Virus record (IMG/VR): IMGVR_UViG_3300030380_000259
Span: 1 to 55,909 of that record
Source: a virus
Taxonomy: Duplodnaviria > Caudoviricetes
Length of the DNA stretch: 55,909 nucleotides
Strand: one strand, 5' to 3'
The position numbers and the translations under genes are program-made. Numbering within the stretch: position 1 is the stretch's first letter; each line of letters starts with the position of its first letter. This document shows positions 5,511-55,909 of this stretch, in pieces. The notes under the pieces were generated by a model. That model was not told the DNA's origin. It worked only from the letters and a program-made list of their open reading frames with translations, and did no database searches.

Positions 5511-5588
5511 TTAAATGATTACAGTTAAAATGTTATTGGCAAAGGAATTATTTAAGGAATAGTTAACTATTTCAGTTTAACTGTTATA

Positions 5589-5617
5589 ATTATACCAGTT
5601 TTTACAGGAAGTGTCAA
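5589..5617 (-). promoter_or_regulatory. Consensus sigma70 promoter driving the leftward (late) arm
   Basis: TTGACA-N17-TATAAT with TG extension. Confidence 0.8.
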
Positions 5618-6003
5618 GCCCTCAAATAGGAAATAGGTAAAGTTTTTCTCTATCTATGTATAAAATAGGAAAATATTCTATAATAGTGAGTATAAAAGTA
5701 TCAGTTGTAGTTGTGGTTAACACTTAATTTACCTAATCTGTGTATTTATTCATGCACATATACGCACTACCCCCGTGTGGCGCATGCACGACCCCTTCAT
5801 CTGTCGATGAAGACTGCCCCAAAAGTCTGATTCAGCAACATTTTCCATAGAAAATGCTAGGAAAACCAAGTGTTTCAGTAGTTAAAACTACTGTTATGGT
5901 ATCAGTCGTCACTCTTCGAGTGGTTTGTAAAGTTGTAAACTAGGGATTTGTAAAGAATTTACAATGCCGATGCTTGGCTTCTTCATTCATTTATGAATGG
6001 TCA

Positions 6004-6021
6004 AAGTCCGCTGACGGACTA
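6004..6021. repeat. 18-bp palindromic box AAGTCCGCTGACGGACTA, copy 1
   Basis: Exact repeat; AGTCCG-CTGA-CGGACT dyad. Confidence 0.97.
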
Positions 6022-6212
6022 ACCCTAACACCTTTGGTGTTGTAGAAATACCACATCCCCTGTTGCAGTTGGGCAACACCTCACATGGGCGCAGTTTGGC
6101 GCAGGTACTTCGGAATAACAAGTTATTCCTGCAGTCACATGAAACGGCAGGGGCAGAGGATGGCGCATCACATCACGGAAAACCGACCACTTATTTCTCT
6201 CATATTTTCTAC

Positions 6213-6270
6213 GTGTTATATAAATATTAATCACAACTTGTTGTGAGTAATTAATATTTATTTATAACAC
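6213..6270. repeat. Long AT-rich imperfect palindrome upstream of the first early gene
   Basis: GTGTTATA-TAAATATTAA-TCACAAC-TT-GTTGTGA-GTAA-TTAATATTTA-TT-TATAACAC. Confidence 0.9.
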
Positions 6271-6290
6271 TTAAAATATGGAGATAAAAA

Positions 6291-6896
6291 ATGACAACAT
6301 CAAACTTCAAAAACTTCGCCACTCAGCTTGCTGAAGCTCCTAATACTTTAGAAGCCAAAGGCTTAGTGTTATCCCGTTGGGATAAATCTATTGTTTCTTC
6401 GGAGAAGAAAACATGGAAGTCTTTGACTTCTAGAGGTGGATTTTGGTTCTCCCTTGGAGAAGTTCTGTCTGAGATTCTAAAAGAATCTGGTGGTAGCAGA
6501 ATGGACTCAGCAAAGCTGAAAGACGCTAATCTTCATACCGTTGCAAAGCAACGTAGAAACGAAGCTATCAAGTTCTTTCAGAACTTTGACTTGATTGAAA
6601 ATCAAAAGCTGACTACCAAGTTTCAATCTATGACTAGATTGATTAGTGGTGTCAATGCTATTGTCAATCCAAAGGATGACAAGCCAACTGAACCAGAGGT
6701 TCAAAATGATGGTAAGTCCGCTGACGGACTAGATGAACCAAAGGTTCAAGAGGTCAAAGCCTTTACACAACTGAACGCTGAAGAAATCGCTTTTGAAGCG
6801 TTGCTTCAATGTGAAGTAAACAATATTCCTGTTAAGGAATTTATGTTAGCTCTCAAAGACCAACTACAGTTGGTTGACCAAAAGGCAGTAGCATAA
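6291..6896 (+). CDS. First early gene, hypothetical protein
   Basis: GGAG RBS, 201 aa, followed by a terminator. Confidence 0.85.
   Translation: MTTSNFKNFATQLAEAPNTLEAKGLVLSRWDKSIVSSEKKTWKSLTSRGGFWFSLGEVLSEILKESGGSRMDSAKLKDANLHTVAKQRRNEAIKFFQNFDLIENQKLTTKFQSMTRLISGVNAIVNPKDDKPTEPEVQNDGKSADGLDEPKVQEVKAFTQLNAEEIAFEALLQCEVNNIPVKEFMLALKDQLQLVDQKAVA
6714..6731. repeat. 18-bp palindromic box, copy 2 (inside CDS)
   Basis: Exact copy encoding KSADGL; flanked by two TGAACC-ARA-GGTTCA dyads. Confidence 0.97.
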
Positions 6897-6915
6897 GCTA
6901 CTGTCTAACTTTTTT
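6884..6915 (+). terminator. Rho-independent terminator candidate
   Basis: GGCAGTAGC-ATAA-GCTACTGTC followed by a slightly offset T-tract. Confidence 0.55.
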
Positions 6916-6930
6916 ATTGGAGATAAAACT

Positions 6931-7164
6931 ATGCGTAATCCACAAGCTACGTCATTCATTCGTAATTTCAACGCAAAGCGTATCACTTCATCATGGAACG
7001 CTACAGACGAAGCCTATGGCTTTGCCGTCTTTCCTGATAGAGATAACACTAAGCCATTCTGTTTTCGGAGTGGGCAAGCAAAAGCTATGGCTGATGAATA
7101 CAAGCGCAAACAAGCTATGCTTGACAAAGCTGAAGCAATGGCTATACTGGATTCACTACTTTAG
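6931..7164 (+). CDS. Early hypothetical protein
   Basis: GGAGATAAAA RBS, same as the upstream gene. Confidence 0.75.
   Translation: MRNPQATSFIRNFNAKRITSSWNATDEAYGFAVFPDRDNTKPFCFRSGQAKAMADEYKRKQAMLDKAEAMAILDSLL
7121..7148 (+). promoter_or_regulatory. sigma70-type promoter TTGACA-N16-TATACT
   Basis: Good hexamers at the end of a CDS, upstream of a non-coding structured region. Confidence 0.5.
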
Positions 7165-7165
7165 A

Positions 7166-7220
7166 GTTATAACATAAAATAAATAAGAATGTTTATGATT
7201 ATTTATTTTATTTATATAAC
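7166..7220. repeat. Second AT-rich imperfect palindrome
   Basis: GTTATA..ATAAAATAAATAA...TTATTTATTTTAT..TATAAC; shares the TATAACACTTAA tail with 6213-6274. Confidence 0.8.
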
Positions 7221-7228
7221 ACTTAACT

Positions 7229-7246
7229 AAGTCCGCTGACGGACTA
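7229..7246. repeat. 18-bp palindromic box, copy 3
   Basis: Exact copy. Confidence 0.97.
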
Positions 7247-7249
7247 ACA

Positions 7250-7430
7250 AATTGAAAGGTTTTAAAATGTAGCGAAAATCTAATGGCAAAAAAAGTGTGA
7301 GTAGGTTCGCCCCATGTGAATTGAAAGCTATGCCAAGCAAGGTGACATGGGGGCATACCGTAAAAGTCTAGGCGGTATGTAGGCAGTGATGCGACCACGT
7401 AAAAAGCCTAGCATCCTTTAACTTCGTTAC
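7250..7430 (+). ncRNA. Putative structured non-coding RNA (three adjacent stems)
   Basis: Stems CCCCATGT/ACATGGGG, GCATACCG/CGGTATGT and AGGC/GCCT; no credible ORF; lies between two boxes. Confidence 0.4.
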
Positions 7431-7431
7431 C

Positions 7432-7449
7432 AAGTCCGCTGACGGACTA
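7432..7449. repeat. 18-bp palindromic box, copy 4
   Basis: Exact copy, immediately before the RBS of 7462. Confidence 0.97.
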
Positions 7450-7461
7450 AGAGAGGACATT

Positions 7462-8088
7462 ATGAAAAAAGAATTTGAAATGGAAATTGCTATCAAGAAT
7501 ATTATCGCTATCAGACGCAAGGCAAAGCCTGAAGACGTAGCAGACGGTATCGCATGGTATGCAAAAGCATACGAGGAGTGCCGTATCATTGCTGAGAGAT
7601 TCGACTTGCCATTGCATATGGTAGTGGGTGTAGTTTCTGCTTTGTCACCCAACAATCGTTGGGCAACTAACATAATCAATGCGAGAGATGTTATCGAGAC
7701 ATGGGATTGTGGCTATGCCCCTGATACAGTTTCCGTATGTACTTACAATGCCATGAAGCTAAAAGCCTTTGCCATCTTAGATGGTGGTAGCAAAACCATT
7801 GATGAAGTAAAAGCTATCTTGAATGGCAAGAAAATTGTATGTTTCTTTGAGAATATACTAGGTGAGGACACTTGCACGATTGATGGTCATGCTCGTAACA
7901 TTGCATACAATCAACGTGTCAATCTTACAGATGCTAAAACTAGCATAGGCAAGCTAGAGTATGCCAATCTACAAGAAGCATATTTGCAAGCGTCAAAGCG
8001 TTGTAGCGTCAATGGCAGACGCTTGAAAACATACGAATTGCAAGCAATTACATGGGTCACATGGAGAAAGATGCACAATATTGCATAG
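7462..8088 (+). CDS. Conserved phage protein, distant HhH-GPD DNA-glycosylase-like fold
   Basis: WY...ALSPNNRW..N...K...F..NI...TIDGH...QAITW pattern. Confidence 0.55.
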   Translation: MKKEFEMEIAIKNIIAIRRKAKPEDVADGIAWYAKAYEECRIIAERFDLPLHMVVGVVSALSPNNRWATNIINARDVIETWDCGYAPDTVSVCTYNAMKLKAFAILDGGSKTIDEVKAILNGKKIVCFFENILGEDTCTIDGHARNIAYNQRVNLTDAKTSIGKLEYANLQEAYLQASKRCSVNGRRLKTYELQAITWVTWRKMHNIA

Positions 8089-8099
8089 GAGATTTGACA

Positions 8100-8249
8100 A
8101 TGGTGATAAGACCTGTTAATCCTGTTGCTAAAGCAATGGCACTAAGTCGTAGACGGCAACAGGTTGTTCCTAACAAGAAAAAGTATAATCGAAAAAAGGA
8201 TAAGAATTATGCAGATACGATTAGAGAAAATGAAGTCTTTAAAGACTAA
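8100..8249 (+). CDS. Small basic peptide, ArfA-like
   Basis: AGGAG RBS; NPVAKAM...RQQVVPNKKKYNRK. Confidence 0.55.
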   Translation: MVIRPVNPVAKAMALSRRRQQVVPNKKKYNRKKDKNYADTIRENEVFKD

Positions 8250-8340
8250 GCCACGCAAGTCAAAGCGTGATGAATGGAAGCGTGCGCGTCAAGCAATGCG
8301 TAAGGCAAAGAGAAATTTACAGGAGAAAATCTATGCTTAA
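8209..8340 (+). CDS. 43-aa basic peptide MQIRLEKMKSLKTKPRKSKRDEWKRARQAMRKAKRNLQEKIYA (below cutoff)
   Basis: AAGGA RBS; stop overlaps the start region of the next gene. Confidence 0.6.
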   Translation: MQIRLEKMKSLKTKPRKSKRDEWKRARQAMRKAKRNLQEKIYA

Positions 8341-8707
8341 AAATGGAATGAGAGTTCGCGTATATTGGAATTTACACAAGAATAAATATTCAGTACAAGA
8401 TGCTAAGACTAACCGAGTTGTAGCTCATGTAGGTGCTATCGCATTGCAAAACTGTAAGCTTACTATTCGTAAATCAGGACAAGAACGTGCTAGACGTGAG
8501 GGCAGGAAAAATGTGCATGCTTTTGTCACAGGTATGTTCTATACTGATGGGCGTTACAAAAACGCATGGTGGAGTGATGGAGCTAGACAAGTTTCATATA
8601 ATCCGTACAAGAATGACACGTTTATGCGTGAGAACAAACCAATTCACACGTCACCCACAATTACTATGGGTACGCATGAAGACCGTCCAAGTGTTTGGGC
8701 AATATAA
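8333..8707 (+). CDS. Conserved phage hypothetical protein (VYxNLHK...RKNVHAFV)
   Basis: AGGAG RBS before ATG 8333; recognisable phage motif. Confidence 0.8.
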   Translation: MLKNGMRVRVYWNLHKNKYSVQDAKTNRVVAHVGAIALQNCKLTIRKSGQERARREGRKNVHAFVTGMFYTDGRYKNAWWSDGARQVSYNPYKNDTFMRENKPIHTSPTITMGTHEDRPSVWAI

Positions 8708-8709
8708 CT

Positions 8710-8727
8710 AAGTCCGCTGACGGACTA
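8710..8727. repeat. 18-bp palindromic box, copy 5
   Basis: Exact copy; identity with copy 3 extends to 27 nt (8705-8731 = 7224-7250). Confidence 0.97.
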
Positions 8728-8756
8728 ACAACTAATCTCTTGAAAGGAGAATTATT

Positions 8757-9167
8757 ATGACTATACAAACTATTACTTTTCACAAGCGTTCAACAGGTAA
8801 AACAGGTCAGGTGCTTGCATCGCCACAGGTAGAAGCTAAATTAGCTAAAGTCGAAAGACTATATGCTGAGTATCATGGTGTTAAGCTAGGACGTGGCAAG
8901 CTATATGACATCGTATTGGACGCATCACGTCAAGCTAAAGAAGAGGTTGGCGGTTATTTGCAGTACACTACACAAGCCGTTGTAGGTATTGTGCTAGAAC
9001 ATATGCACAGAGAGCTTGGCAAAGCCGTAAGACGTAAGAACAGAGATACCATAGGTATTGAAGTTGGTGAATTTACTATTGTTAATCTGCGTAGTCTTGC
9101 ACGTAATACCAAAGGTAAGGTGTACGATGCCAACGGCAAGCGCGTATTGAAAGGAAAGGTGGCTTAA
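8757..9167 (+). CDS. Early hypothetical protein
   Basis: AAGGAG RBS. Confidence 0.8.
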   Translation: MTIQTITFHKRSTGKTGQVLASPQVEAKLAKVERLYAEYHGVKLGRGKLYDIVLDASRQAKEEVGGYLQYTTQAVVGIVLEHMHRELGKAVRRKNRDTIGIEVGEFTIVNLRSLARNTKGKVYDANGKRVLKGKVA

Positions 9168-9769: not shown

Positions 9770-10012
9770 ATGCAACATCCAATATCACGTTACATGATGG
9801 CATCCTACGCATACTACGTAGAGGATGACCCGATACTAAGTGACGCAATGTTTGACCAATGTGCTAAGAATATCTTAGAGCATTGGGATACACTTGACCA
9901 TCCACACAAACATCTGCTATCAAAGGATATGCTAGAAGCAGGTACTTATCTAGGTAAGTATCCAGAGATAGTTAAAAATGCAGTAGCACATTACAGGAGA
10001 GAGAACACATGA
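9770..10012 (+). CDS. Stand-alone NAD-dependent DNA ligase subdomain Ia-like protein
   Basis: YAYYVEDDPILSDAMFD matches LigA Ia YYxxDxPxxSDAxYD. Confidence 0.7.
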   Translation: MQHPISRYMMASYAYYVEDDPILSDAMFDQCAKNILEHWDTLDHPHKHLLSKDMLEAGTYLGKYPEIVKNAVAHYRRENT

Positions 10013-11106
10013 ATGTATTAAGTTTATTTGATGGGAGTGCTTGCACTCGTGTTGCCTTAGACAAACTAGGTATACCAGTTACCAAGTACTATGCGTCAGA
10101 GGTAGACAAGTATGCTATCAAGGTAGCGATGGCAAACTATCCTGACATAGCACAGTTAGGTGACGTTAAGGATGTAGGCATAGCTTTCAAGGAAGGTGAT
10201 ATTGACTTGCTTGTAGGTGGTTCACCATGTCAAGGCTTTAGCTTTGCAGGTAAGCAGTTAAACTTTGATGACCCACGCAGTAAGCTATTCTGGGAATATG
10301 TCAGAGTCTTACGCAAACTCAAGCCCAAGTATTTCTTGCTTGAGAATGTACGCATGAAGCAAGAGTATCAGGACGTTATCTCTGATGCGCTAGGTGTACA
10401 ACCTATCGCTATCAACAGTAGGCTAATGTCTGCACAGAACAGATACAGATTGTATTGGACAAACATACCCAATGTCACACAACCAGAGGACAAAGGCATT
10501 GTGCTACAAGATGTCCTTGAGGATGGGTTTGCTGACAGAGAGAAGTCACATTGCCTTGATGCCAACTACTTCAAGGGTGGCAATCTCAAGACATACTTTA
10601 CCAAGCATCGTAGACAGTTAGTATTTAGTAGCGATGGCTTGTGTCATGTTGCTGACGCTGACCTCAATGGCAACGATAGCATCAAGCGTGTCTATCACCC
10701 ACTAGGTAAAGCACCTACGCTTACTACAGGTACAGGTGGCAACCATGAACCCAAGGTATTGTGTGGTGCATGGCGAGGTAGGTACACAGTCGATGGCGTA
10801 CGTCAAGACCACAAGCATAGTGTCAGAGGTATGACAGAGCAACGTCTAGAGGTACGGCTTGACGGCAAGACTAACAGTCTGACTACAGTACAGAAAGACA
10901 ATGTGGCAGTTCACTTTGACCACGATTGGAATGATACGAGTGTGTTTGACTTACAATGGCGCAAGCTGACACCGATTGAGTGCGAGAGATTACAGACATT
11001 GCCAGACAACTACACCAACCATGTGTCCAACACGCAACGATACAAGATGCTAGGCAATGGCTTTACAGTTGACGTGATAGCACATATACTGAAAGGAATT
11101 AAGTGA
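10009..11106 (+). CDS. DNA (cytosine-5) methyltransferase
   Basis: Motif I LSLFDG, IV GGSPCQGFS, VI ENV, VIII QNRxR, IX RKLTPIECERLQ and X GNG. Confidence 0.95.
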   Translation: MNVLSLFDGSACTRVALDKLGIPVTKYYASEVDKYAIKVAMANYPDIAQLGDVKDVGIAFKEGDIDLLVGGSPCQGFSFAGKQLNFDDPRSKLFWEYVRVLRKLKPKYFLLENVRMKQEYQDVISDALGVQPIAINSRLMSAQNRYRLYWTNIPNVTQPEDKGIVLQDVLEDGFADREKSHCLDANYFKGGNLKTYFTKHRRQLVFSSDGLCHVADADLNGNDSIKRVYHPLGKAPTLTTGTGGNHEPKVLCGAWRGRYTVDGVRQDHKHSVRGMTEQRLEVRLDGKTNSLTTVQKDNVAVHFDHDWNDTSVFDLQWRKLTPIECERLQTLPDNYTNHVSNTQRYKMLGNGFTVDVIAHILKGIK

Positions 11107-13701: not shown

Positions 13702-14019
13702 ATGAAAAATCAAAACGCATATAAAATGGCTAGAACGACAGACCCAGAGACAAGTCACAAGGCAGCCAAAAATATAGAACCAACACGTTTAGAGAGTGTT
13801 GTATTGGATGCCATACGACACTTTGGAGAATCAGGAGCTACTATGGATGAAGTAGATGAAGCACTGCCTAACATCAGAAGTGCTAGTATATCTCCAAGAT
13901 TTAAACCTTTGCTAGATAAAGGTTATGTCATAGGAGATGGTAGGACACGTAAAGCTCTCTATTCTAATAAACAACAGAGGATACTTTGGGCGGTAGAATT
14001 TTACAATGAAAACAGTTAA
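13702..14019 (+). CDS. Winged-HTH DNA-binding protein
   Basis: ARTTDPETSHKAA N-terminus; GATxDE...SISPRFKPL..KG wHTH pattern. Confidence 0.7.
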   Translation: MKNQNAYKMARTTDPETSHKAAKNIEPTRLESVVLDAIRHFGESGATMDEVDEALPNIRSASISPRFKPLLDKGYVIGDGRTRKALYSNKQQRILWAVEFYNENS

Positions 14020-14884
14020 CCACTTAGTTGACAGATACTATTCATCTAATGATTTCAGTATGTTAAGAGACAAGTCTAAAGCAGACTATAAATATTTCTT
14101 AGGCATAATGACTGACAAATTTGGTGATATAAAGTATGATAAGCTGACGAGTAAGGAAGCTAAACACGCATACGAAGAGTGGGTTGAGCGAGGCATTAGC
14201 TTCGCCAACCACATCTGTACTGTGTCATCCATCGTGTATCGCTATGCTATTGACATGGAGTATGCGACAATAAATCCTTTCTCTAATGTCAAGCGTAAGA
14301 CACCTATTCAACGTAAGGTTGTATGGACAGAGACAGATGTTACCAACTTTCTTGACACCGCTTATTCACAGTTTGAGTGGCGTAGCCTTGGGTTAATTGT
14401 ACATATGGCATACGAATGGTGTCAGAGATTGGGTGACATGAGGCTATTGACGTGGGATAATCTTGACTTGCCAGACAAAAAGCTATATCTGGAGCAGTCA
14501 AAGCGTAGAGCAGAGGTAACTTTGCCTATCGAAGATGACTTACACTCCATGTTGATACAACAACAGGAAGACTTCGGCTTTCAACAGTACGTTGCTCCTC
14601 GTATAAAGCCCGTACAGGGCGAGTACCAACCATATAGCATAGATAGACTAGGAAAAGCCGCACGTGTCGTTATGCGTGAAGCAGGACTGTCTGATGAGCT
14701 ACGTCTTATGGACTTACGAAGGACAGGAACAACACAAATGGTGGAAGCTGGTGTCGGTATGGCACAAATAATGTCGGTTACAGGACACAGTAACCCACAG
14801 TCAGTCAAACCATACATGAAAAATACTTACGAGAGTGCAAATTATGCCTTGACCGCACGTAAATCTCGTGGTAAAAGCAGTTAA
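14006..14884 (+). CDS. int: Tyrosine recombinase / integrase
   Basis: QRLGD (R), QSKR (K), DLRRT (R), TGH and Y catalytic pattern. Confidence 0.92.
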   Translation: MKTVNHLVDRYYSSNDFSMLRDKSKADYKYFLGIMTDKFGDIKYDKLTSKEAKHAYEEWVERGISFANHICTVSSIVYRYAIDMEYATINPFSNVKRKTPIQRKVVWTETDVTNFLDTAYSQFEWRSLGLIVHMAYEWCQRLGDMRLLTWDNLDLPDKKLYLEQSKRRAEVTLPIEDDLHSMLIQQQEDFGFQQYVAPRIKPVQGEYQPYSIDRLGKAARVVMREAGLSDELRLMDLRRTGTTQMVEAGVGMAQIMSVTGHSNPQSVKPYMKNTYESANYALTARKSRGKSS

Positions 14885-25920: not shown

Positions 25921-25950
25921 AAAAGAAGGGGCTTAATTGCCCCTTTATTC
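25919..25950. terminator. Bidirectional terminator between the converging arms
   Basis: AAGGGGC-TTAATT-GCCCCTT flanked by A- and T-rich tracts. Confidence 0.85.
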
Positions 25951-28900
25951 CGTATATACGTCTTCTAATACCTTACCTATATCAACTAGTATTGATAAGT
26001 CTTTGAAGTCCATACTATCAGGAACTTTATTATATCTCTTAAAAAATTCTAGTTGTGACTCTTCTCTTATACCGCTTGGTAAACGTCTATACTTTAACAT
26101 CGCATCAGCGTAGGCTGGAGCATCTGCAAAAAATACCTTTTCATCTGATACTTGGCTTCGTACTGTTTTAATTTGTTTGTCTAAAAAGTTTCTAATTTTC
26201 ATAGATACATAGGCTTCTTCACTATATTCTTGTTTTAATTCATCACTAGATATTTGATACTGTGACCTGAGTGCGTCTTCATAATCTTGTGCTTCTTCCA
26301 CTATCATAGGTAATGCATCTCTAACAACTTTATTTTCAAATGTTTTTATTCCCGGAACCCTAGATTTACTACTTAATTCATACTCAGTAAAACCAAAACT
26401 AGCTATGTATTCACCAAAAGGTTCATCACGAGTAGTAATATTAAGACCACCAAGCACACGAAGTATAGGAGCAACACGTTCTTTTCTTTCAGCAAATAAA
26501 AATTCTTTAGAGGGTCTTTGAAACTCTCTACTAGGTGATTCAAATCTTCCAAATGACTTACCCAGTTCACCAAAAAAAGCAGATTGAAAATCTAAGGTAG
26601 GGTCTTTACCTCTTTCTTTAAAATCTGTAGGACGCATACCGAAAGACCGTTCAGCTTCTATAACTTGACCATAAGGAACAGCCCAAGTAGATAGATAGTT
26701 TCCTAGAAGTCTACCAGTTCTTCTTCCTAAAACCTCATCACCAACTAAATCTTTAGTAGATGCTATATCAACTACCTCGTCTATGAGAGTATTACCTACT
26801 CCTGTTCTAACATTAGTGCCTAAAAAAGTTTCTCTCATCTCTCTGTCATCGTACCAATCTCCGTAAGTACCATTTATAAGACGCTTCATTGCTTCTCCCA
26901 TCCATAAAAACTGTCTTACTGGAAATTGTGGTGTGGTATCTATTTCTGAATTATCCCCAGTTACTAGCATTTTGTAATCGCTGGGAGCATCATCCATTGT
27001 TCTATATTGATATGCAGCACCCACTGTAGCTAGACCTATAAGGTTACGAGATATTCTCTGTCTATCTTTGAATGTATATTTTTTAATTTCTCCCCTACCA
27101 AGTAAACTTATGAGTCTTTTAGTCAACGGTATAGATGCACCTGCCGCATATTGACCCATAAGTTCCATACTATTAAACATAAAACGTGGAAAAGGTAAGG
27201 CAACTGTTAAGCCATTACGAACAATAAATTGAGATGTAGCCCTAAAAATCTCTACATCAGGTGCTTTAGCGTATGTCACATCTAATGCTTTTGTTGTTGC
27301 CTCTGCTATAATGTCATTAAATGACCTAGCATCTTTAGGTTTTACAGTACCTGCATCATTTAAAAGGTCACGTATTTTTCCTTTATTTATTGTGTCTATT
27401 AAATCAATTTTATATTCACGTTTTACTAATCTTTCTAACTCACCTAAAAACGCACCTCTACGTATTAGATGTTCTTGCCATCTGTTAGGTGTATTAAGAA
27501 CATCCATAGCATCTTCAAGTTCAGTAAGAACTTTATCTGTTCTACTACCAGTGCCACGTCCTGTCATCTTCTGTATTTCATTTATGTTATTAAACATAAG
27601 GTCATACTGTTTTTCTAACCCATCTTGCTTCAATATAAAATCTACATATTCTTTTACATCCATAGATGTTTCAGGACCGAACATATATTTCATATGTCTA
27701 AAACTGTCTTTCCAATTACTACCTGAAAATAAAGATTTACCTGCGGCTCTATAACCCTCTTCTGATAAATTGTATAAGGCAGTATCCATAACATTACCTA
27801 AACCTTCAAGTGGCGCACGGATACCACCTGATGTAAGGTTACGTGCGGCAGTAGCCACCTGAGATACTAGTCCTGCTCTTCTTACATTTTCTGTTCTCAT
27901 TATAAATTTACGTATAGCACCCTGTGCTTCTTTTGTAGCCGCTTCTTGTAGTGCAATCATCTCATTAGCAGGACGCATACGTTTTATTTGAGACAACTTC
28001 TGTAATGTTTTACCTGCCTCTGAACCAGAACCTACCACAGTAAGTATATAGTCTTCAAAAGATAGATTATATTTATTAAGAAGGTCTATTAGTTCTTCAC
28101 CTTTAACAAGCTCTTTATTAAGTGTTAATTCAAATAGATTATCTATAACTGTTTTATTATTGTCAAAGGCTGTAGGTTTTAACTCTTTTAAATCTGCAAC
28201 TGCCGCTACTAAAGCATCAAACTTTTCAGGTTTAAGTAATGGTTGTGTTAGTGTATCTCCTTGCCCTGCTAACAAAGCGGCATCCGCATCTATATCTGCA
28301 CTACCTAGTAGAAAATTTTTAACACCCTTTCGACTTGCTGTAACTATTTCTTCAGCAGTTTCTACTCCTGCCTCTCTGGTTTTTGATTCATTAATAACTT
28401 TTAAACCATCTTCCCCTGTATCAGATATAATCTTACCTGTTTTATTTTCAAAGGAATCTATTAAATCACTAGCAATATCACGGTTTTCAGAGGCTACTTT
28501 AGATGCTAACTCAGCTTTTGCATCGATATCTGCATCTGTATTTATCATAGCTTGTTTTGCGTTTAACTTTCTATTTAAATATTTTTGTAGTGCTTGTTCT
28601 GATTTTATCTCTTTCTTTAACTCTTTAAGAGTTCTTTTTGATGTGTTACCTGCTAAACCAAAGGTAGAACCAACGGCAGGAACAGCCTCTGCCATTTCTA
28701 ATAATGCTCCTAAATCACCAGCAAACTTTTTACCTGCTGTCTTAGGGTCAAACGGCAACATCTCTTTGCCTGTCATACCAAAGAGTTTATTATCTTCCGT
28801 AAATGTTTCGTGAATAGCACGAGTGATAGCTTCTCCTGAATCTTTCGCAGTTTCTTCTATCCCAGCAACAGCAGATATTAAAGTTTCTAAACCTGCATTA

Positions 28901-29409
28901 CCAGTAGCGGCTATTACTTTTGCTATTGTTTTTAATCCTGTCGGTGCTTTGTCAACAAAATCTTGAGCATCAATTATATCTGCTTCTGATAATAATTTAT
29001 CTATTTCTTTTTTATCTTCATATCCAAACAGTTTATCCGTCTGCTCTTCTACAGTAGGTTGGTCAAAGTCAAGAACAAGTTTAACATTAGCAGGGTCATT
29101 GGGGTCATCACTTACAGGTACACTAGGAACATACTTATAACCAACAGGAACTTTCCCTGTGCGTATATAAAATGCTTCTGGTGATTCGTCTATTTCGGGT
29201 ACATCTGTTACCACTATCTCATCTACTGCTGTAGCAGGAGTGTTGTCAGGGGTAGCATCATTTAAAAAAGTAGTATTACTTTCTATCTCATCTAGTTGTT
29301 TAGATAAATTATTAGTATCTACTCTATCTAAATTAGAAGAAGATACAGAAGATGTCTCCTCTTCTTCTAAAGCAGAAAGTTGTCTTAAATAATTATTGCT
29401 ATCTGTCAT
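25945..29409 (-). CDS. Large internal virion / ejection protein
   Basis: 1154 aa, helical; last gene of the structural arm. Confidence 0.65.
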   Translation of the reverse strand: MTDSNNYLRQLSALEEEETSSVSSSNLDRVDTNNLSKQLDEIESNTTFLNDATPDNTPATAVDEIVVTDVPEIDESPEAFYIRTGKVPVGYKYVPSVPVSDDPNDPANVKLVLDFDQPTVEEQTDKLFGYEDKKEIDKLLSEADIIDAQDFVDKAPTGLKTIAKVIAATGNAGLETLISAVAGIEETAKDSGEAITRAIHETFTEDNKLFGMTGKEMLPFDPKTAGKKFAGDLGALLEMAEAVPAVGSTFGLAGNTSKRTLKELKKEIKSEQALQKYLNRKLNAKQAMINTDADIDAKAELASKVASENRDIASDLIDSFENKTGKIISDTGEDGLKVINESKTREAGVETAEEIVTASRKGVKNFLLGSADIDADAALLAGQGDTLTQPLLKPEKFDALVAAVADLKELKPTAFDNNKTVIDNLFELTLNKELVKGEELIDLLNKYNLSFEDYILTVVGSGSEAGKTLQKLSQIKRMRPANEMIALQEAATKEAQGAIRKFIMRTENVRRAGLVSQVATAARNLTSGGIRAPLEGLGNVMDTALYNLSEEGYRAAGKSLFSGSNWKDSFRHMKYMFGPETSMDVKEYVDFILKQDGLEKQYDLMFNNINEIQKMTGRGTGSRTDKVLTELEDAMDVLNTPNRWQEHLIRRGAFLGELERLVKREYKIDLIDTINKGKIRDLLNDAGTVKPKDARSFNDIIAEATTKALDVTYAKAPDVEIFRATSQFIVRNGLTVALPFPRFMFNSMELMGQYAAGASIPLTKRLISLLGRGEIKKYTFKDRQRISRNLIGLATVGAAYQYRTMDDAPSDYKMLVTGDNSEIDTTPQFPVRQFLWMGEAMKRLINGTYGDWYDDREMRETFLGTNVRTGVGNTLIDEVVDIASTKDLVGDEVLGRRTGRLLGNYLSTWAVPYGQVIEAERSFGMRPTDFKERGKDPTLDFQSAFFGELGKSFGRFESPSREFQRPSKEFLFAERKERVAPILRVLGGLNITTRDEPFGEYIASFGFTEYELSSKSRVPGIKTFENKVVRDALPMIVEEAQDYEDALRSQYQISSDELKQEYSEEAYVSMKIRNFLDKQIKTVRSQVSDEKVFFADAPAYADAMLKYRRLPSGIREESQLEFFKRYNKVPDSMDFKDLSILVDIGKVLEDVYTE

Positions 29410-39662: not shown

Positions 39663-41033
39663 TTATCTAATACGCACACGTCTTTGTGCGCTAAGTCTAT
39701 CAAATGTTGGTGGTATTCTAACAACTCTATTCTGTGAAAGTATAAATACTCTTCTATCTTCAGGTCTTGCATCAAGTCTCGCTTGTACATATACAACTCT
39801 ATCTCTAGTAAATAAATCGCGTAATGATAGATAATTTATTTTTATAGTATCATCACTAGAAGTAGAAGCATTTCCTGTAGCTGAAACAGATACTATTTTA
39901 ACTACACGAGATTCAGTTGTTGCATTAGCATCACCTGATATAGAACCACTAGCTAATACTCTTATAGAAGGTATTGCTATAACTGATGCTGAACCTGATA
40001 TACTGCTATCGACAGCATTTATATGTGCAGGTGTATTAGCTACTGCGCTTGAACCTGAACTAGTAATATCAGCATTAAAAACTTTAACTGCAGAACTAGA
40101 GGTAGCACTTTGACCTGTTATTGAACTACTAACATCTTTTAACTTATCTGCTACTGCTGATACAGTTGTTGCACCACTAACAGAAGCACTAGCAATTTCA
40201 ATATCAGATGTACTAACACTAATAGATGCTGAACCAGATGCACTAGCTGAAGAATCAAATGTCTGATTAGCTGTACCTGATGCAGTACCGTCACCTAAAA
40301 TGCTTCCTGCACCTAAAGTACGTCTACCAGCTATACTAGATGCACTTGCTGACCCTGAAACAGAAGCATCTGCCTCTTGTCCAACTAAACCTTGAGCAGT
40401 AGCACTACCTGTTACTGAAGCCTCACCTAACAACACTTTTACAGCAGTGCTTGATGCTGTGCTTTGACCTGTTACATTTGCTTCAGCTTTAAATCTTTGA
40501 TTAGCAGAACCTGATGTAGTTGCCTCACCTGATACACTTGCTTCTGCAGGTCTTACTTTTATAGCAGTAGAACTTACACTACCATCACCTGCTATACTTG
40601 CTTCTGCAGGTTGTACTCTTACAGCCGTAGAACTTACGCTACTATCACCTGATACGGATGCATCTGTTGTTATTCTTACACCAGCAATAGCAGATACACT
40701 AGCTGAACCAGATATTGCAGACTCACCCGGTCTTAAACCTGTAGCTGTAGAAGACGATGAACCATTTGCAGATATTGAAGTTCTAGCATCTAATGTAGCA
40801 ACCGCAGTGCTTGCCTCTGTACCAACACCCGATACACTAGCACTTGCAGGTTGTATTTTTACAGCACTTGAGGATACTGCACCTTGACCTGAAACTGATG
40901 CAGAAGAAGTTTGTATTCTTATAGCACTTGAGGATACTGCACTTGCGCCTGATACGGATGCATCTGCTGTTAATATTCTACCTGCTTCAGCAGAAAACGG
41001 AGCAGTAGAAAAAGGAGCAATAGAAAACGTCAT
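39663..41033 (-). CDS. Ala/Ser-rich 20-aa repeat structural protein
   Basis: Repeated ASVSG units; 60-nt DNA periodicity. Confidence 0.8.
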   Translation of the reverse strand: MTFSIAPFSTAPFSAEAGRILTADASVSGASAVSSSAIRIQTSSASVSGQGAVSSSAVKIQPASASVSGVGTEASTAVATLDARTSISANGSSSSTATGLRPGESAISGSASVSAIAGVRITTDASVSGDSSVSSTAVRVQPAEASIAGDGSVSSTAIKVRPAEASVSGEATTSGSANQRFKAEANVTGQSTASSTAVKVLLGEASVTGSATAQGLVGQEADASVSGSASASSIAGRRTLGAGSILGDGTASGTANQTFDSSASASGSASISVSTSDIEIASASVSGATTVSAVADKLKDVSSSITGQSATSSSAVKVFNADITSSGSSAVANTPAHINAVDSSISGSASVIAIPSIRVLASGSISGDANATTESRVVKIVSVSATGNASTSSDDTIKINYLSLRDLFTRDRVVYVQARLDARPEDRRVFILSQNRVVRIPPTFDRLSAQRRVRIR

Positions 41034-55472: not shown

Positions 55473-55843
55473 TAATCATCCTCACTTACTGCTTTAGGTG
55501 GCATAAGCATAACACCACCGCTTGCTTCTACCTGCATTTTTTCTGTCTTCACCAAACCTGAACGGTCTAATAGTTCTTTAGCCGCTGACATCTTGTCACG
55601 TATGCCTAGTTCTGTTGGGTCATACAATGCACCTGTCATAGCCATAGCCGCCTTTGGTGCGTTACGTGCCATGTACATAGATGTAGCTTCTAGTATTTCA
55701 TCCTTTAGTCCTTTGACAATAGAGGTAGTTGGTGTATTGTCTGCATACCCAGCAATCTTCTTTGCCTGTACAACATCACCATTTGCTTCTTCAAAAAGAA
55801 CCGCAAGAAACTTTTGCTGTCTTTCATTTAACTGTCGTGTCAT
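55472..55843 (-). CDS. Terminase small subunit-like protein
   Basis: LNERQQKFL...A...AGY HTH; AAKELLDR motif; upstream of TerL. Confidence 0.65.
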   Translation of the reverse strand: MTRQLNERQQKFLAVLFEEANGDVVQAKKIAGYADNTPTTSIVKGLKDEILEATSMYMARNAPKAAMAMTGALYDPTELGIRDKMSAAKELLDRSGLVKTEKMQVEASGGVMLMPPKAVSEDD

Positions 55844-55909
55844 GCCATCTCTCCAGTAGCCATAGCGTGAGCCAAACGTGTGCTACGTCCTTTTACCTGC
55901 CTTGCCCAC
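55625..55909. repeat. Terminal overlap, copy 2
   Basis: Matches 1-285 with 17 substitutions. Confidence 0.97.

Follow-up and report, generated by a model that had tools for sequence, protein, structure and literature searches.

What marks the first genes of the rightward operon in an HMO-2011-type marine podophage, and what reads the mark? The question is raised by an 18-bp palindromic sequence, AAGTCCGCTGACGGACTA (hereafter the box), in virus record IMGVR_UViG_3300030380_000259 of IMG/VR, of which the full 55,909 nucleotides were analysed (the window). The window is the entire record, is rated 100% complete, and is a complete genome of an HMO-2011-type podophage, with 70% nucleotide similarity to Puniceispirillum phage HMO-2011 across positions 5712-6701 and 83% to Roseobacter phage CRP-345 across the non-coding positions 5712-5800. 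The box is present in five exact copies at 6004, 6714, 7229, 7432 and 8710, all on the + strand and all within the first 2.7 kb of the rightward block of genes. A scan of the 55.9-kb genome allowing up to three mismatches gave 5 matches where 0.01 were expected, and 0 of 100 shuffled sequences reached 5; the whole record held 5 forward and 0 reverse copies, with 0 in a backwards control. The degenerate core GTCC-N6-GGAC occurs in the window at precisely the five perfect box sites, and the three further sites found when one mismatch is allowed are what chance would give (a total of 8 where 6.26 were expected). The first-pass annotation of this DNA had described five identical copies of one orientation in the early 2.7 kb and none elsewhere, and had read them as a phage-specific signal; the mismatch scan bears out the distribution, and a real phage-specific regulatory repeat limited to the start of the rightward operon is supported. 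We conclude that the repeat is a real control site, that it is the local version of a palindrome common to HMO-2011-type phages, and that the product of the first rightward gene is most likely its reader.

The five copies occupy different settings. Box 1 (6004-6021, + strand) lies in a long leader some 270 nt upstream of the first rightward gene, between small flanking hairpins that covary in relatives. Box 2 (6714-6731, +) is in frame in the coding sequence of that gene (6291-6896), where it encodes residues 142-147, KSADGL, in a predicted disordered linker, and a small GAACC/GGTTC hairpin comes after it. Box 3 (7229-7246, +) comes after an AT-rich hairpin and the hexamer TATAAC, and is followed by a Shine-Dalgarno (SD) sequence, an ATG (7267-7269) and an immediate TAG. 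Box 4 (7432-7449, +) ends 12 nt before the ATG at 7462 of a DUF7178 gene (7462-8088, +), and box 5 (8710-8727, +) lies 2 nt past the stop codon (8705-8707) of an L5-gp82-like gene and ends 29 nt before the ATG at 8757. These placements, one copy in frame in a coding sequence and the others outside, with boxes 4 and 5 ahead of the 7462 and 8757 starts, agree with those first described. The 27 nt that boxes 3 and 5 were said to have in common, and the TATAAC said to precede both, are also present; the hexamer stands 8 nt ahead of box 3 but only 1 nt ahead of box 5, and as such the spacing is not fixed.

Equivalent boxes were looked for in related phages and are present in the same early region. 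Two sets of relatives were assembled, 80 loci through the DUF7178 protein and 69 through a profile of the gene-6291 protein. GTCC-N6-GGAC was found in 22/22 of the DUF7178 loci at least 64% identical to the window, with three to six copies in 21 of these and one copy in a locus, L122, that is cut just upstream; among more distant loci it was found in 0/58, one of which, L162, has instead four copies of a CCCC..GGGG variant. In the set gathered through the gene-6291 profile, 65 of the 69 loci have 2-7 copies. The boxes of HMO-2011 have the same arms around another centre (GTCCGACAGCGGAC), and those of CRP-345 read GTCCAA..TTGGAC. Across the whole HMO-2011 genome all five sites (5/5) fall in one 3.3-kb stretch that spans the start of the record, and four of the 6 sites in the CRP-345 genome fall in the equivalent early stretch, with 0 sites in the backwards control of either. 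The two outlying CRP-345 boxes (MZ892990.1, 7079-7092, inside the integrase gene, and 14469-14482) have no counterpart in the window or in HMO-2011, neither of which has boxes outside the early stretch. Box positions are syntenic and restricted to the rightward (+) module, in the first ~3 kb of the operon: one site in the leader, with ~270-300 nt between it and the first gene, one within the 3' part of that gene or just past it, and the remainder in successive intergenic gaps as far as the homologue of gene 8757. A search of bacterial and archaeal genomes (596 Gb) with the G-type box pattern gave single chance-level hits, with no multi-copy cluster or prophage among the matches listed, and is uninformative.

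The anatomy of the site was derived from 230 non-identical box contexts. G1, T2, C3 and C4 and their partners are invariant in all of them. The inner pair, at positions 5 and 10, is most often A-T (118) or G-C (88); G.T accounts for 14 contexts, T-A for 3 and A.C for 2, and mismatches of other kinds for 3. An A stands at position 6 in 93% and a T at position 9 in 75%, with a pyrimidine at position 7 and a purine at position 8 between them. Among the centres ATGT is the most frequent (84), followed by ACAG (43), ACGT (40), ACAT (22), ACCT (15) and the CTGA of the window (9). The centre is therefore a degenerate palindrome, A-Y-R-T, in which TG, CA and CG steps all occur, in both orientations, and in which perfectly symmetric forms are common. 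With invariant arms and a palindromic centre, the whole 14-mer is a degenerate palindrome. This bears on the earlier proposal that an invariant asymmetric spacer denotes a directional element, which holds within the window genome only and fails across the family. The centres of the GTCC and GGAC half-sites are 10 bp apart, one helical turn, with a flexible pyrimidine-purine step on the dyad; judged from its letters, the 14-mer would have the architecture of a dimeric-repressor operator of the 434/lambda type, with inverted half-sites about 10 bp apart and a looser centre.

Copies within one genome are nearly always of one type, and as such change in concert. The clearest case is L162, in which the DUF7178 gene is 95% identical to that of the window and the sequence around box 3 is ~90% identical, and in which the 14-bp core alone has been replaced (CCCCAACCTTGGGG in place of the GTCCGCTGACGGAC of the window). 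A second CCCC lineage, comprising L436 and L409, has five copies of CCCCAACGTTGGGG. Since all copies in a genome share a type, and since a core has been exchanged within near-identical flanks, a phage-encoded reader of variable specificity is implied by these comparisons; neither a hairpin recognised by shape only nor a site for a conserved host factor would need concerted conversion. A host-factor site is accordingly disfavoured by the core swap in the near-identical L162 background.

The same loci bear on another explanation, that the boxes and their conserved flanks are primarily recombination joints at which early cassettes are shuffled, with regulation secondary. In the window, the ATG at 7267-7269 and its TAG are followed by ~160 nt of non-coding sequence and box 4, and in place of window positions 7267-7431 a close relative (L111, 4700-5000) has a protein-coding gene and lacks box 4, with the break directly after box 3. 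This difference is a cassette replacement bordered by boxes. In L162 the DUF7178 gene, 95% identical, is likewise joined to upstream sequence that has diverged far more, and CTAA-type flanks are common to boxes. A repeated motif beside exchangeable small early genes is also what characterises the PeSL composite cassettes of T4-like phages, although the promoter role of the element upstream of the boxes (see below) is putative. In the sections of the PeSL report drawn on here, terminator- and promoter-type repeats stand between variable small early genes, and cassettes are gained, lost and replaced (PMC4122927). The PeSL motifs described there are host-type promoters and terminators, with no genome-specific palindromic core and no cognate phage protein mentioned in those sections (PMC4122927). 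Homologous exchange needs neither an invariant palindrome nor genome-specific core types, and the L162 event, core swapped and flanks kept, is the opposite of a simple crossover at the box. We therefore consider it highly improbable that shuffling is the principal role of the boxes.

Which phage protein might be the reader? Two candidates that lie further along the rightward strand can be set aside. The first-pass annotation had suggested the winged helix-turn-helix (wHTH) protein encoded beside the integrase (13702-14019), a small putative DNA-binding protein (phrog_1123) of the same strand block, for which the boxes would be operators. This protein has no tblastn homologue at E<=0.001 in 50,697 phage records, which include the boxed genomes of HMO-2011 (5 boxes) and CRP-345 (6 boxes), and the suggestion is almost certainly wrong. 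The C5 cytosine DNA methyltransferase (10009-11106, +) was likewise rejected as reader, being present in only 1/22 boxed related loci, and is an accessory gene of the window lineage. The first rightward gene (6291-6896, +), which encodes an orphan protein of 201 residues, is a much better candidate for a box-binding protein. Its family, of which HMO-2011 gp74 and CRP-345 gp01 are members, is present in 21/22 boxed loci, the missing one being cut upstream, and in 0/57 unboxed loci. We found 522 homologues in metagenome proteins, with no Pfam domain in any of the 120 listed.

The AlphaFold model of the gene-6291 protein (mean pLDDT 77.7) has a helical N-domain (residues 9-125), a disordered linker (130-158), part of which is encoded by box 2, and a C-terminal helical hairpin (163-200). 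Within the helix 86-97, all of 29 diverse sequences keep R88, R89, E91 and A92, a constancy that matches that of GTCC. Residue 86 in turn follows the outer bases of the box. Among the GTCC loci in which the motif could be detected it is K or R in 79/79 (25 different helix strings), and among CCCC loci it is S or D in 3/3 (2 different strings); ten loci were without the motif in this count, and two truncated loci have the basic residue but fewer than two boxes. In quick maximum-likelihood trees, one of full-length proteins and one of N-domains, the two CCCC proteins do not group together: L211, which lies on the same contig as L162, pairs with L213 (support 98-99), and L436 pairs with the L240-249 group (support 88-93). 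This implies two independent switches to CCCC, both with loss of the basic residue at position 86. The protein is also predicted to form a homodimer, with a score of 0.82 where the best of three controls scored 0.00. The mark for a dimer was reached by 20 of 30 solved one-chain pairs and by 1 of 23 solved single chains, counts that are approximate because a custom alignment was used. The dimer runs agree in at least 41% of contacts, the partner pLDDT is at least 69, and the predicted interface is symmetric and lies in the N-domain.

Several observations weigh against this assignment. Other early genes are likewise clade-restricted, so that co-occurrence with the box is confounded by phylogeny, and with only two independent switches a sign test of the residue-86 association cannot reach significance. 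The helix motif follows the inner base of the box incompletely, IDKRRR or VDKRRR being found with GTCCG in L029/L220 and L069. The predicted dimer interface takes in residues 78-84 and 88, beside the proposed recognition helix, and any DNA-binding geometry of the modelled dimer is as such putative. The protein belongs to no Pfam or PHROG family, and Foldseek found no match to it in the PDB at E<=0.001. In a wider structural comparison (VIA wide, range Z 5.2-5.4) the top rows, TssA at Z 5.4 and the operator-bound KorB DNA-binding domain at Z 5.3 (87 residues, rmsd 3.2), were tied, both below a meaningful level, and the best match in a second look was Raf1 at Z 5.0. A sequence profile search of the PDB gave one chance-level hit, and in the protein atlas the N-domain matched unnamed viral clusters only, a 'translation repressor' row at 0.90 being at chance level. 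The product of gene 6291 nevertheless remains the most likely reader of the box.

How the boxes act is best approached through their surroundings. An SD and start codon lie no more than 55 nt downstream, on the sense strand, in 156/230 contexts (median distance 20 nt, interquartile range 19-24), compared with 342/1840 random positions and 25/230 on the antisense side of the boxes. A conserved upstream element (UE) precedes 62 box contexts. It comprises a hairpin, whose stem covaries and whose loop is conserved, and after this a run rich in A/T that closes with TATACT or TACACT, resembling a -10 hexamer. In 56/62 cases the motif ends 27-31 nt before the box; were the UE a promoter, the start of transcription would fall at the box or shortly ahead of it. 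The window has variants of the UE in two long AT-rich hairpins that end in TATAAC, one upstream of gene 6291 (6213-6270, +) and a second directly upstream of box 3 (7166-7220, +). Both hairpins are nearly pure A/T, each ending in TATAACACTTAA, and the stretches that hold them have fold z-scores of -6.4 and -3.9. Boxes also occur within open reading frames (ORFs), in 71/235 contexts compared with 815/1860 random positions. Most of these are the copy in the linker of the first gene, which is always in the same frame, in box types A, B, C and E alike, and encodes KSADGL, KSDSGP, KSNVGL or NPNVGA.

Our favoured reading, which we hold with somewhat less than even confidence, is that the boxes are a multi-copy set of DNA operators or roadblocks. 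The dimeric product of the first gene would recognise them, most likely on duplex DNA. A box just downstream of a promoter-like UE would act as an operator over the transcription start, and a box between or inside genes would act as a roadblock, such that the first early protein would damp the expression of its own operon and of the four to six genes that come next. The outcome would be an auto-regulated early shut-off or timing switch. The repeat, its conservation and synteny in the family, its concerted change, the co-occurrence with the gene-6291 family and the co-variation of residue 86 with the outer bases are established by the comparisons above; that the gene-6291 protein is the reader, that DNA rather than RNA is the target, and that repression is the effect, we infer. 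DNA is favoured because the invariant letters are in the arms, while the centre is variable, is itself palindromic and is found in both orientations; because the ~30% of sites that lie in ORFs would be translated through; because the box stands at the predicted start point of the promoter-like UE; because in type C boxes positions 6 and 9 stay complementary although they are unable to pair in a hairpin; and because the candidate reader is a predicted symmetric dimer.

The strongest competing explanation, which is a possible if unlikely one, is that the boxes act as RNA hairpins in early transcripts, with a 5-6-bp stem and 4-nt loop about 20 nt before start codons, bound by the first-gene protein or by another factor. 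Such hairpins could serve in translational repression, in protection of the 5' or 3' ends of processed cistrons, as cleavage sites or in antiterminator loading. The points that speak for RNA are at the same time those that weigh against the DNA operator reading. The coupling to SD and start codon on the sense strand suits a role in an RNA 5' untranslated region at least equally well. The flanks are asymmetric, with A at -1 in 82% and T at +15 in only 49%, one orientation of the centre dominates within most genomes, and non-Watson-Crick inner pairs favour G.T over A.C, the bias expected of sense-strand RNA, although the 14 G.T cases trace to about four homologous sites of a single clade, at one of which L248 shows the flipped form. 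As RNA the window box would form a 6-bp stem with a 4-nt loop, and the hairpin folds in every window context. The leader around box 1 shows double changes, on both sides of the pair, in 29/76 predicted pairs, and a transcript started by the UE, were this a promoter, would have the base of the hairpin as its 5' end. The order of promoter, leader with box 1, first gene and intrinsic terminator (6883-6906, +, a 10-bp stem and T run called by the terminator scan) also resembles the PL-nutL-N-tL1 layout of lambda.

The pattern of conservation argues in the other direction. Loop-reading RNA-binding proteins usually show a conserved loop, whereas in the boxes the stem letters are conserved and the loop varies. 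In type C boxes the loop would be of 2 nt, within which positions 6 and 9 could not pair, and the stems of this type are weak. Ribosomes would unfold the hairpins that lie in ORFs, and a purely structural hairpin would not need the joint conversion of copies. Of the two mechanisms, the DNA operator set stands ahead of the RNA hairpin in our estimate. Other conventional RNA or promoter signals were rejected. A terminator is not indicated, as no T run follows any box and the terminator scan calls none of the five on the + strand, its only terminator-like call on a box being at box 5 on the - strand (8726-8711), antisense to the genes. RNase III needs a far longer stem than the 5-6 bp available, and a sigma-70 promoter inside the box is unlikely in a GC-rich sequence that lies too close to the SD for a -10 element.

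We note that the leader itself has features beyond box 1. The conserved non-coding stretch 5712-6200 (+), which includes box 1 and is similar at the nucleotide level to HMO-2011 and CRP-345, contains hairpins with compensatory changes in 8-12 relatives, in particular at ~6105-6170, without an Rfam match, and may represent a novel structured RNA of the leader or else, at the DNA level, for instance an origin. Rfam gave 0 hits at the gathering threshold in the window and 16 related loci, and none on a box at E<=1. A sub-threshold match to GP20-b (31.7 bits against a gathering score of 36.2, E 3e-4) lies at 7351-7410 (+), in a GC-rich non-coding stretch between boxes 3 and 4, and does not reach the gathering score in the 16 related loci.

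A third type of explanation makes the boxes hairpin promoters, or start signals, for a non-canonical RNA polymerase, injected or assembled early as in phage N4. Copies that are identical within a genome, that differ in type between genomes and that are converted jointly would be expected of promoters for a phage RNA polymerase, as would the fixed sense orientation and the short distance to SD and ATG. The boxes are moreover confined to the first DNA of the operon, and some follow terminator-like hairpins. Small hairpins in the earliest region are known from other podophages, in the promoters of the N4 virion RNA polymerase and in the early RNase III sites of T7, and a small number of repeated short hairpins of one orientation is a point of likeness to both. 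However, the box has a stem of only 5-6 bp and no phage polymerase was found: neither a phage RNA polymerase family nor a catalytic motif was detected in the subset of ORFs that was searched or folded. The large proteins have structural Pfam and PHROG hits or none, 0/7 of those scanned have a DxDGD-type or T7-type motif, and D-x-D-x-D strings occur only in D/A-rich helical stretches of a 1154-residue protein. Furthermore, 30% of boxes are inside genes and many already have a sigma-70-like element upstream. The first-pass annotation had recognised no phage RNA polymerase, which agrees with the large virion proteins examined here; its suggestion of a promoter for an injected factor is possible but has found no reader, and we give it very little credence. 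The 1154-residue protein (25945-29409, -), whose gene closes the virion module, gave no match in Pfam or PHROG. The named atlas clusters closest to it, at scores of 0.90-0.92, carry the large-polyvalent-protein domains LPD38 and LPD3 and are leads only; it may be an ejected multi-domain protein.

The structure of the first-gene protein also recalls a replication initiator, for which the boxes would be binding sites and the AT-rich hairpins unwinding elements. In lambda, four clustered iterons lie beside an AT-rich region, inside the O gene. The gene-6291 protein is similar to lambda O in that a site lies in the linker-coding part of the gene of its own binder, and in that specificity is borne by the N-domain while the C-domain is more freely exchanged. 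The phage has a DnaB-type helicase and a separate primase and no recognised initiator, according to the HMO-2011 annotation and the window ORFs, and two AT-rich hairpins of ~55-60 bp lie beside boxes. In contrast to the lambda origin, the gene itself contains a single site, and the remaining ones are scattered between its neighbours over 2.7-3.5 kb, one per intergenic gap, rather than in iteron-like clusters. Coupling to start codons has no role in an origin, and the protein has no similarity to known initiators. A replication initiator is as such very unlikely.

Among known systems, the operators and stoperators of cluster A mycobacteriophages (L5-type) are the nearest in logic. In the L5-type phages each stoperator is an asymmetric 13-mer, recognised by a monomer that has two DNA-binding domains; the stoperators number more than 20 across the genome, serve lysogenic immunity, and have been proposed to block both initiation and elongation, according to the portion of the report on which we rely (PMC9283540). 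As far as that portion describes them, the two systems share many identical short sites for one phage protein (here a candidate), positions at promoters and in intergenic gaps, orientation with transcription, and specificity types that diverge between related phages. Within the same limits, the box differs in being a 14-bp palindrome with an unrelated predicted dimer as its candidate reader, and in being present in 4-7 copies in the first ~3 kb (5 sites in 2.7 kb in the window and none elsewhere; 5 in 3.3 kb in HMO-2011). Gene 6291 is also placed like cro, first in an operon of the lytic direction, unlike the L5-type repressor.

Two further comparisons are instructive. KorB of IncP plasmids is a dimeric helical protein that acts as a global repressor from OB palindromes dispersed among promoters and genes, and ParB-type dispersed sites are found in the phage-plasmid N15. 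The boxes are likewise dispersed identical palindromes, and the KorB domain (1r71) is a weak structural match to the gene-6291 protein, not above background; in contrast to KorB and ParB there is no sequence family hit, no partner ATPase or partition context, and the sites are coupled to start codons. In the lambda N/nut system, boxB loops are conserved and read by an arginine-rich peptide, and the nut sites are untranslated and two per genome. Here too a first early product would act on hairpins with 5-bp stems in its own leader and after early genes, ahead of terminators, and box and protein types co-vary among relatives. The boxes differ from boxB in their variable loop and invariant stem, and from nut sites in that 30% are in ORFs and in their number of 4-7 per genome.

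We found no description of the box repeat in HMO-2011-type phages in the literature searched, outside which lay the original 2013 description of HMO-2011 and supplementary files, and nothing on gene regulation in these phages. The two main papers on the HMO-2011 family make no use of the terms palindrome, promoter, hairpin or stem-loop, and 'palindrom' occurs in PMC4981710 solely within the name of CRISPR. The box is apparently an undescribed conserved cis-regulatory repeat, and one with an identifiable candidate reader. HMO-2011-type phages are counted among the most abundant marine viruses in the part of the literature consulted here (PMC9038755), and the element is conserved across phages of SAR116 and Roseobacter hosts and many uncultured relatives. 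The comparison yields a residue-to-base prediction for the candidate, position 86 against the outer two bases of the box, for which natural specificity variants are on hand, and suggests a likely function for an orphan protein family with more than 500 metagenome members. The box can also serve as a marker of the early region and of specificity classes in metagenomic contigs. A more far-reaching proposal, which is speculative and which we think improbable, is that the phages have a previously unknown and rapidly re-programmable pair of address and reader, in which a dimer of new fold would read palindromic hairpins, in extruded DNA or nascent RNA, at the 5' edge of early cistrons and so time early expression, and in which the GTCC and CCCC types would be incompatibility or immunity classes between co-infecting relatives.

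The wider layout of the genome gives the boxes their context. Leftward genes run from 5510 down to 1 and then round the circle into the terminase, portal, capsid and tail genes. The rightward block, from 6291 onward, opens with small genes whose function is unknown, after which come methyltransferase, DUF932 protein, integrase, primase, helicase, polymerase and ribonucleotide reductase genes. Between the two lies a divergent non-coding region (5511-6290), in which a consensus scan places back-to-back sigma-70-like promoters at 5563-5617, on the + strand TTAACT-16-TATAAT (5563-5590) and on the - strand TTGACA-17-TATAAT (5617-5589). The box region is presumably early, to judge from its position beside this divergent promoter region and upstream of the replication genes. 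The terminator at 6883-6906 follows gene 6291, and a scan for tRNA genes found none in the window.

Minor features were noted elsewhere. Two overlapping small ORFs that encode very basic peptides (8100-8249 and 8209-8340, +) have conserved counterparts in relatives, as judged by tblastn; the first is preceded in most relatives by a box, at a distance of ~16 nt, and in L436 a box lies within the second. A small hairpin is predicted at 8736-8750 (+), in which an upstream CUCUU would pair with the SD of gene 8757; the hairpin may mask this SD, and was not seen in the relatives inspected. Positions 1-285 and 55625-55909 form a 285-nt terminal direct repeat of 94% identity, which probably reflects overlapping assembly ends of a genome, circular or circularly permuted, that was assembled from a mixed population. 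A gene of 456 codons in the tail/fibre region contains imperfect 60-nt tandem repeats (40517-40936, -) of 65-85% identity.

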